33,964 nucleotides of DNA from Escherichia coli. Lineage in GTDB: Bacteria; Pseudomonadota; Gammaproteobacteria; Enterobacterales; Enterobacteriaceae. The stretch lies in assembly GCF_003334385.1 (NCBI RefSeq), contig NZ_QOWN01000048.1, one strand, 5' to 3'. The position numbers and the translations under genes are program-made. Positions 15,875 to 16,549 of the stretch are shown here, in pieces. The notes beneath the pieces were generated by a model. That model saw only the letters and a list, made by a program, of their open reading frames with translations. It ran no database searches and had not been told where the DNA came from. The stretch's first letter is position 1, and every line of letters begins with the position of its first letter.

Positions 15875-16399
15875 CTACCTCAGATCACCTAATAATATAT
15901 CAAGATTATTTTGCGCATTAATGCTATTCGCCATTACTGTTGCTGCTTCTGGCAACTTTCCAAGAGCAATAAATATATTCTTAAGGCTGATTGGAATTGA
16001 TGAACCATGCGGATCGCGCCACTCACCGCAAATTCTGTGAGTTTCATCACAAAGCCTGAACGCATCCCAACCTCCATATTGACCAAAAATTATGTCCATT
16101 GACTCTATTTCTGCGGGCGATAACTCCCCCAGCTCATCAACAGAAGAAAATGTACGCCACATTTCAACCTTATGATCCGCTACATCAGATATCCATGATT
16201 CCCACGGACTGTACTCGTTTTCACTTCCATCCTTAACCAAAGAATATGTCTGCGATAAAACGGGTCCTTTGTTCATAGAGAAATAATGATCACCACTAAT
16301 GGGAAAACCATACAACTCCATTGCTTTGCGGTCAGAGAGATACATCAGCTTAATGAAACGCATAGATCCGCCATGTTTTTTCAGCAAATACGCTGCCAT
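15875..16399 (-). CDS. Panacea-domain (DUF4065, GepA/SocA-like) phage-associated protein, putative antitoxin/immunity protein
   Basis: 174-aa ORF with FIKLMYLSDRKAMELYGFPISGDHYFSMNKGPV..., resembling DUF4065. It is co-directional with and directly downstream of the giant ORF, and convergent with ibrB. Confidence 0.45.
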   Translation of the reverse strand: MAAYLLKKHGGSMRFIKLMYLSDRKAMELYGFPISGDHYFSMNKGPVLSQTYSLVKDGSENEYSPWESWISDVADHKVEMWRTFSSVDELGELSPAEIESMDIIFGQYGGWDAFRLCDETHRICGEWRDPHGSSIPISLKNIFIALGKLPEAATVMANSINAQNNLDILLGDLR

Positions 16400-16549
16400 T
16401 TACGCAACTTTTTCTTCATTAAACATAAATCGGCTCTCTGTCTCACATGAAATACTCTTTCTGACTATATGTTAATAGCTCCGGTTATTACAGGTTAATG
16501 TGTGTTTATTTCTTAATCAGCCCCGCACTTCCGTACGGGGCCATTTCTG

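Follow-up and report, generated by a model that had tools for sequence, protein, structure and literature searches.

The stretch of DNA considered here, referred to as the window, comprises 33,964 nucleotides of Escherichia coli contig NZ_QOWN01000048.1 (assembly GCF_003334385.1) and carries a 933W-like (Sepvirinae) prophage adjoining ynfE/ynfF. The gene under study, panA, encodes a Panacea-domain protein and is separated by a 150-nt leader from the stop codon of a giant open reading frame (ORF) of 2792 aa; panA and this leader together make up the interval 15875-16549. The features of panA and of the region that follows it, including the remains of a partner gene, panT, are given below; L021 and L027 are contigs with intact sister loci.

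15875 to 16399, minus strand: panA ORF, 174 aa, without the first 9 residues (ORF list and translation, Pfam, RefSeq)
16400 to 16402, minus strand: TAA nonsense codon in place of a conserved CAA (Gln9) (allele alignments)
16403 to 16426, minus strand: first 8 ancestral PanA codons, MFNEEKVA, previously read as an "8-codon upstream ORF" (sequence, alignments)
16343 to 16351, minus strand: sole remaining copy of the 9-nt unit AAGCTGATG (KLM) (pairwise alignments, homologue sequences)
15852 to 15869, minus strand: panT remnant, its first six codons, MMFSPY (alignment to L021 and L027, direct sequence reading)
15790 to 15851, minus strand: spacer from the panT stub to the ibrB stop codon, with a CCGGGGA...TCCCCGG inverted repeat (alignment)

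With a probability of roughly 0.8, this gene is the relic antitoxin half of a type II PanA-PanT toxin-antitoxin (TA) cassette, the toxin of which has been deleted and the antitoxin of which is decaying. The observations that carry this reading are the identity of the domain, the intact sister loci, the lesions, the fold of the partner, and the conserved linkage of that partner to PanA.

The 174-aa product matches Pfam SocA_Panacea (PF13274) over residues 16-127 (independent E-value 3.1e-19; model positions 2-112/113). This significant match over most of the model places it in the Panacea/DUF4065 family, as an earlier reading made by a model from the letters alone (the sequence-only reading) had proposed. 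It also matches PHROG 1281 (E=2e-40) and is identical to RefSeq WP_032144006.1, which is already named a Panacea domain-containing protein; a sequence-level search of the PDB with it detected no solved structure. Its neighbours in 18 complete genomes, E. coli EC2 included, are annotated as LPD38 domain-containing on one side and as IbrB-like on the other, and the window form of panA is also present in the isolated, inducible phage PhiR5_2. The same reading had placed the giant ORF upstream on the same strand and ibrB converging from the other side, and had seen no small toxin gene next to panA. The ORF list and RefSeq confirm both neighbours, and the window indeed holds no intact small partner gene.

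However, the further claim that there is no room for a conventional partner does not hold, since sister prophages accommodate a 133-aa partner of MazF fold between PanA and the same ibrB. The 90%-identity cluster of the window protein contains a 186-aa member (P0135), found on contigs L021-L024. There, at the same ynfE/F site, the same giant ORF, with LPD5, LPD1, MuF_C and LPD38 domains, is followed by a 123-nt spacer, an intact PanA, 5 nt, and a 133-aa ORF. A second intact allele is present in L027-L031, where the gene call begins at an internal Met although the DNA encodes the complete N-terminus; in L027, L029 and L031, converging ibrB and ibrA come next after the panAT pair, as in the window. 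The intact pair was found solely in draft assemblies, through the cluster listing, and two queries of complete E. coli genomes found none. From the panA start through partner codon 6, the window is 94.7% identical in nucleotide sequence to the intact sister loci (likewise 94.7% to the panA of L021), and the end of the giant ORF and the leader align equally well. The partner ORF of L021 and L027 starts MMFTPYRRGT; homology of the window to these loci ends after codon 6, and codons 7-133 are gone. The inverted repeat in the spacer may be related to an element that follows panT in the intact loci, to which its homology is moderate.

A TA-like locus as defined by Kurata et al. (2022) has a second gene on the same strand within <=100 nt, with the pair conserved in at least two species. 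Such a pair is present in L021-L024, in L027-L031, and in at least 10 other contexts, and is absent from the window; the window locus is therefore regarded as a relic. In L027, at about 4040-4195 in the gap between panT and ibrB, the final ~130 nt of the giant ORF occur a second time, together with the GGCCCCGTACGGAAGTGCGGGGC hairpin. Because the giant-ORF end and the hairpin recur beyond panT, panAT in this contig is bracketed by direct repeats, which suggests that the cassette is gained and lost by homologous recombination between phage variants.

The antitoxin gene itself has two lesions. The first is the TAA at codon 9, which ends the short ORF MFNEEKVA-TAA (16426-16400) and directly abuts the ATG at 16399-16397, in frame with PanA. 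This codon is CAA in 933W, Shigella phage 75/02 Stx, E. coli cM8a, L021-L024, and L027-L031, and TAA in the window and PhiR5_2; every window-type copy examined carries the TAA. When Gln9 is repaired, the resulting 183-aa sequence is covered 99-100% by many homologues of 184-186 aa, and those from Yersinia, Mixta, Photorhabdus, Pluralibacter, and Cobetia begin MFxEEKVAQMAAYLL. Similarly, Kurata et al. restored an N-terminal MIFSEQKVAQ to the PanA of Pseudomonas moraviensis (PMC8832971). Since the intact alleles read Gln at this codon, the short ORF is a mutational scar and not a regulatory element. Two 177-aa proteins starting MAAYLL (P0004 and P0010) were considered as candidate independent nonsense alleles; P0004 is ruled out, as its codon is CAA at the DNA level and its shorter length is an artefact of the gene call.

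The second lesion concerns the unit AAGCTGATG, present once in the window, twice in the intact alleles (KLMKLMYLS), and four times in E. coli cM8a (compared at L021 6685-6702 and L004 about 3060-3100). The single copy relative to the two of the intact alleles corresponds to a 3-codon deletion in the conserved KLMKLLYLSDR helix, and the repeat looks like a slippage hotspot within the first conserved helix of the Panacea domain. With Gln9 changed to TAA and three helix codons deleted, the window does not hold an intact antitoxin ORF. Relative to an intact allele, the window has 8 amino-acid replacements and 9 synonymous changes, a nonsynonymous-to-synonymous rate ratio (dN/dS) of about 0.25. Between the two orphan alleles there are 4 nonsynonymous and 1 synonymous changes (444 and 114 sites), and the dN/dS of about 1, which comes from very small counts, is suggestive of neutral change.

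Structure comparison assigns the 133-aa partner a MazF/PemK-like fold. The model was built with AF2 (AlphaFold2) from a 117-sequence alignment and replaced an earlier run with 8 sequences that had a pLDDT (predicted local distance difference test score) of 73.6. Relatives of the partner were collected by exhaustive search, in place of a word-indexed search that had returned 4. In Pfam, the only match of the partner was ICMT at E=0.4, PDB sequence searches with partner profiles of 8 and 117 sequences returned noise only, and neither NCBIfam nor the models of PADLOC matched PanA or the partner sequences (two in the case of PADLOC, which has no model for the PanA-PanT pair). The partner is a putative RNase, with RNA and gyrase both candidate targets.

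Members of this partner family are encoded directly after PanA in many settings: in a P2-like prophage, with the replication gene on one side and the portal gene on the other; in metagenomic contigs, with a 4-nt overlap; in Pluralibacter gergoviae; and in phages of Yersinia, Klebsiella, Vibrio, Pseudomonas, Helicobacter, and E. coli. The PanA of the P2-like phages is 69% identical to that of the window, and the P. gergoviae PanA (P0066), whose 90% cluster includes an FDAARGOS-type sequence, is 50% identical. No giant ORF is present in the examined stretches of these other contexts (P2-like, lambda-like, and other elements). P2-like phages have a variable slot beside the portal gene that is a hotspot for anti-phage systems. 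Intact PanA-PanT pairs occupy this slot in an E. coli prophage (L013 9230-10944) and in Pseudomonas phage Sirocco (L019 929-1875). Their position suggests that the intact cassette is a phage-borne defence or exclusion module.

With its MazF/PemK/CcdB-type fold, and encoded directly after a PanA that lacks an N-terminal domain, the partner belongs with PanT group T6, which was described as EndoA/PemK/MazF-like by HHpred and in the order antitoxin then toxin (Kurata et al. 2022, PNAS, PMC8832971). In the same study, the T6 pair of P. moraviensis was toxic, translation-inhibiting, neutralised, and complex-forming, and the P. gergoviae pair was listed under T6 (PMC8832971). The present cassette resembles T6 in having a standalone Panacea antitoxin, ~185 aa long and lacking an N-terminal helix-turn-helix or PAD1 domain, an N-terminus of the form M(I)F-x-E-x-K-V-A-Q, and, in the sister loci, the antitoxin followed by the toxin with a 5-nt gap or a 4-nt overlap, the MazF/PemK-like partner having no Pfam or CDD match. 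It differs in that the window has no toxin and its antitoxin bears a nonsense codon and a helix deletion, and the E. coli Sepvirinae cassette is known from sequence alone.

The Panacea domain is also common to SocA-SocB of Caulobacter crescentus, the namesake of SocA_Panacea. In that pair, the toxin SocB binds the sliding clamp and so blocks replication, and SocA serves as its proteolytic adaptor to ClpXP, whereas the partner here has a MazF fold. In contrast to MazEF, Kid-Kis, and CcdAB, the antitoxin is a globular Panacea protein and not MazE, Kis, or CcdA. As for the partner, sequence searches detect no similarity to MazF, and its C-terminus carries two additional helices.

The window form is one of several states of decay among Shiga-toxin (Stx) phages. 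In 933W, panA keeps 27 N-terminal codons, fused out of frame to its 3' end, and L0135 (62 aa; L002 3734-3922, minus strand), annotated as hypothetical, is panT minus residues of about 12-86. The PHROG match of L0135 is 1925, and those of the PanA stubs are 28947 and 3658; such PanA and PanT stubs from Stx phages appear to make up several small PHROGs without an assigned function. In 75/02 Stx and POCJ13, one deletion has taken out the stretch between panA codon 38 and a point shortly past the partner. Other orphan copies have an IS1 insertion at codon 4 or an IS3 insertion that removes the N-terminal half (IS, insertion sequence), and P0003 has a 26-residue in-frame deletion from which the GPV motif is gone. 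A phage census gave 186 matching records, with a near-full panA solely in PhiR5_2. Among 5,426 complete E. coli genomes, the intact pair was present in 0, the window form in 18, and shorter stubs in roughly 157, and the stub genomes listed show the three-piece pattern of 933W. The toxin is inactivated in all three decay routes, presumably because, by TA logic, losing the antitoxin alone would be lethal. Comparison of these loci shows that, behind the giant ORF, a PanA-PanT (MazF-fold) cassette was once common to the entire 933W/Stx-phage family.

The following course of events would account for the locus. 933W-like prophages carry panAT as an accessory "moron" just past the end of the late operon, the intact cassette consisting of a 186-aa standalone Panacea protein, 5 nt, and a 133-aa toxin of predicted MazF/PemK fold. 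PanA would bind and neutralise such a toxin directly, as it does in validated relatives. In the window lineage, the toxin gene was deleted with six codons left behind, and the antitoxin, without a target, would then have decayed. The toxin was probably lost before PanA began to decay, and from its lesions the window PanA has probably lost its function. The 174-aa product could still arise by re-initiation at TAAATG, but most likely would have no remaining role.

Several points weigh against decay. In 18 complete genomes and more than 100 draft contigs, the 174-codon ORF remains open. A near-full-length protein may be made, because the TAA-ATG junction and a GAGAG Shine-Dalgarno-like sequence ahead of the ancestral start codon would permit re-initiation. 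The need for residues 1-9 and for the KLM triplet is putative, and the substitution counts are tiny, so that a dN/dS near 1 is just suggestive. Additionally, the orphan form is commoner than the intact pair, which could reflect advantage rather than hitch-hiking.

These points lend themselves to a different, though unlikely, explanation, namely that the 174-aa protein is a functional orphan antitoxin, an anti-addiction or counter-defence gene kept to neutralise the PanT toxins of rival prophages (Sepvirinae with an intact cassette, or P2-like phages) or PanAT-type abortive infection of the host. It is consistent with an ORF that is open and almost unchanged in the 18 complete genomes, many drafts, and PhiR5_2, with the abutting stop and start codons, and with the circulation of related intact cassettes in E. 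coli. There is precedent for antitoxin-type genes without a toxin on phages, in T4 Dmd (against RnlA/LsoA) and in the DarG-like enzymes that defeat DarTG1 (PMC11257639). However, those genes are intact and selected, whereas the window gene arose by a visible deletion of its own toxin and bears lesions of an inactivating type: a nonsense codon at a conserved residue, the loss of three codons from the Panacea helix, and a weaker -35 hexamer. Furthermore, dN/dS among the orphan alleles is about 1, sibling orphan copies are broken further by IS elements and deletions, the gene is wholly lost from most relatives, and the open ORF is expected by chance because the copies are so similar. The sequence-only reading had offered an orphan antitoxin directed at host defences; its orphan status stands, as no toxin is adjacent, but the proposed role is weakened by the nonsense codon, the helix deletion, the dN/dS near 1, and the further decay of sibling alleles. 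A more specific version, in which truncated PanA is made by termination-reinitiation at TAAATG and kept as an anti-addiction or superinfection factor against the MazF-fold PanT of rival prophages, is more doubtful still; if true, it would explain why the toxin-less form outnumbers the intact pair in E. coli.

The remaining alternatives depend on the features on either side of the cassette.

16469 to 16498, minus strand: promoter-like site of the cassette, TTAACC-18 nt-TAACAT (promoter scan, alignments)
16519 to 16542, minus strand: hairpin with a 10-bp stem and GGAA loop (RNA fold)
16550 to 24928, minus strand: 2792-aa polyvalent protein, orthologue of 933W L0134 (Pfam; RefSeq, LPD38 domain-containing protein; 933W annotation)
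15142 to 15786, plus strand: ibrB, converging on the cassette (ORF list; RefSeq, IbrB-like protein)

In L021, the promoter-like site reads TTGACC-18-TAACAT, scores 9/12, and passes the promoter scan. The scan of the window leader gives nothing above threshold, and TTAACC fails; the -35 difference from the intact loci is one G-to-A change in the only promoter-like site. The hairpin begins 7 nt past the stop codon of the giant ORF and 92 nt upstream of the start codon of the short ORF, has a folding energy of -20.5 kcal/mol (z = -5.6 against shuffles), and is identical in 933W, 75/02, and L021. The terminator scan does not call it, and on the minus strand a U-tract is missing from its tail, UGAUUAAGAAAU; the hairpin therefore does not qualify as a canonical Rho-independent terminator. 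The hairpin noted earlier at about 16519-16540 as a possible attenuator of read-through is thus real but lacks the hallmark of a terminator, and the best reading is that it forms the 3' end of the late transcript, with the promoter-like site that belongs to the cassette lying downstream of it.

Across 933W-like phages, panA and the giant ORF are adjacent and on a common strand, and it had been suggested that PanA is an immunity protein, protecting the producer cell from a toxic module of the 2792-aa protein. This is very unlikely. Pfam scans of the giant ORF, run on three overlapping pieces, recognised LPD5 (about aa 1050-1199), LPD1 (1360-1439), MuF_C (1749-1840), and LPD38 (2475-2680), and no toxin domain. 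The first 1000 residues (window 21929-24928, minus strand) are unannotated, with no significant Pfam match and marginal glycine-zipper matches at residues 405-432, and thus leave some space for such a module. However, PanA is tied to its cognate small partner in many contexts with no giant ORF in the stretches examined, and the hairpin stands between the giant ORF and panA, as does a separate promoter-like site in the intact sister loci. Moreover, 933W and most Stx phages, with VT2-Sakai and >150 E. coli prophages among the examples, keep the giant ORF with PanA reduced to stubs. The giant protein is therefore independent of PanA, as it is retained intact in phages in which PanA is destroyed. 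Accordingly, the combination expected of an immunity protein, co-inheritance with a large protein that contains a toxin module, is not seen for this pair.

The least credible proposal is that PanA expression is tuned, by attenuation or translational coupling, through a device made up of the 8-codon ORF and the hairpin: the TAA does abut the ATG, with a stable hairpin 92 nt upstream of the short ORF, but this ORF shares the PanA reading frame and specifies the conserved N-terminus of the family, all intact alleles have the sense codon CAA and no intact toxin-linked PanA was seen with a stop there, and the hairpin follows the stop codon of the giant ORF and in L027 also recurs with the giant-ORF end away from panA. 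The short ORF is thus present as described, but not as regulatory design. Overall, the features of the sequence-only reading are all there; what it overlooked were the six surviving partner codons and the nonsense origin of the short ORF.

Beyond the cassette, ynfE and ynfF, two molybdopterin oxidoreductase ORFs of 808 aa arranged in tandem, are found immediately outside the prophage end (window 7118-12028, plus strand). The prophage is apparently inserted at ynfG, because this 4Fe-4S gene, which follows ynfE/ynfF, is truncated in the EC2 annotation. Among the tail and late genes of the identical EC2 prophage, a Hok/Gef-family type I toxin gene is annotated (L001 24493-24633), which would correspond to about 28190-28330 (minus strand) in the window and represent a second, apparently intact toxin module of the same prophage.

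The domain, the family, the class of partner, and the mechanism of neutralisation are already published. In the literature searched, no paper was found that links the Panacea domain to Shiga-toxin prophages, and the new points, at the level of annotation, are the ancestral Sepvirinae cassette and the recognition of L0135 as its debris. The value of the analysis is mainly corrective, in that the toxin is absent from the window through deletion and not through an unusual tie to the giant polyvalent protein. Although no new mechanism is involved, L0135 and other small "hypothetical" ORFs and PHROG families are explained, which should aid annotation. For the family as a whole, the loci form a decay series of a TA module, from the intact pair to the toxin-less form, to an antitoxin with a nonsense codon, and finally to stubs.
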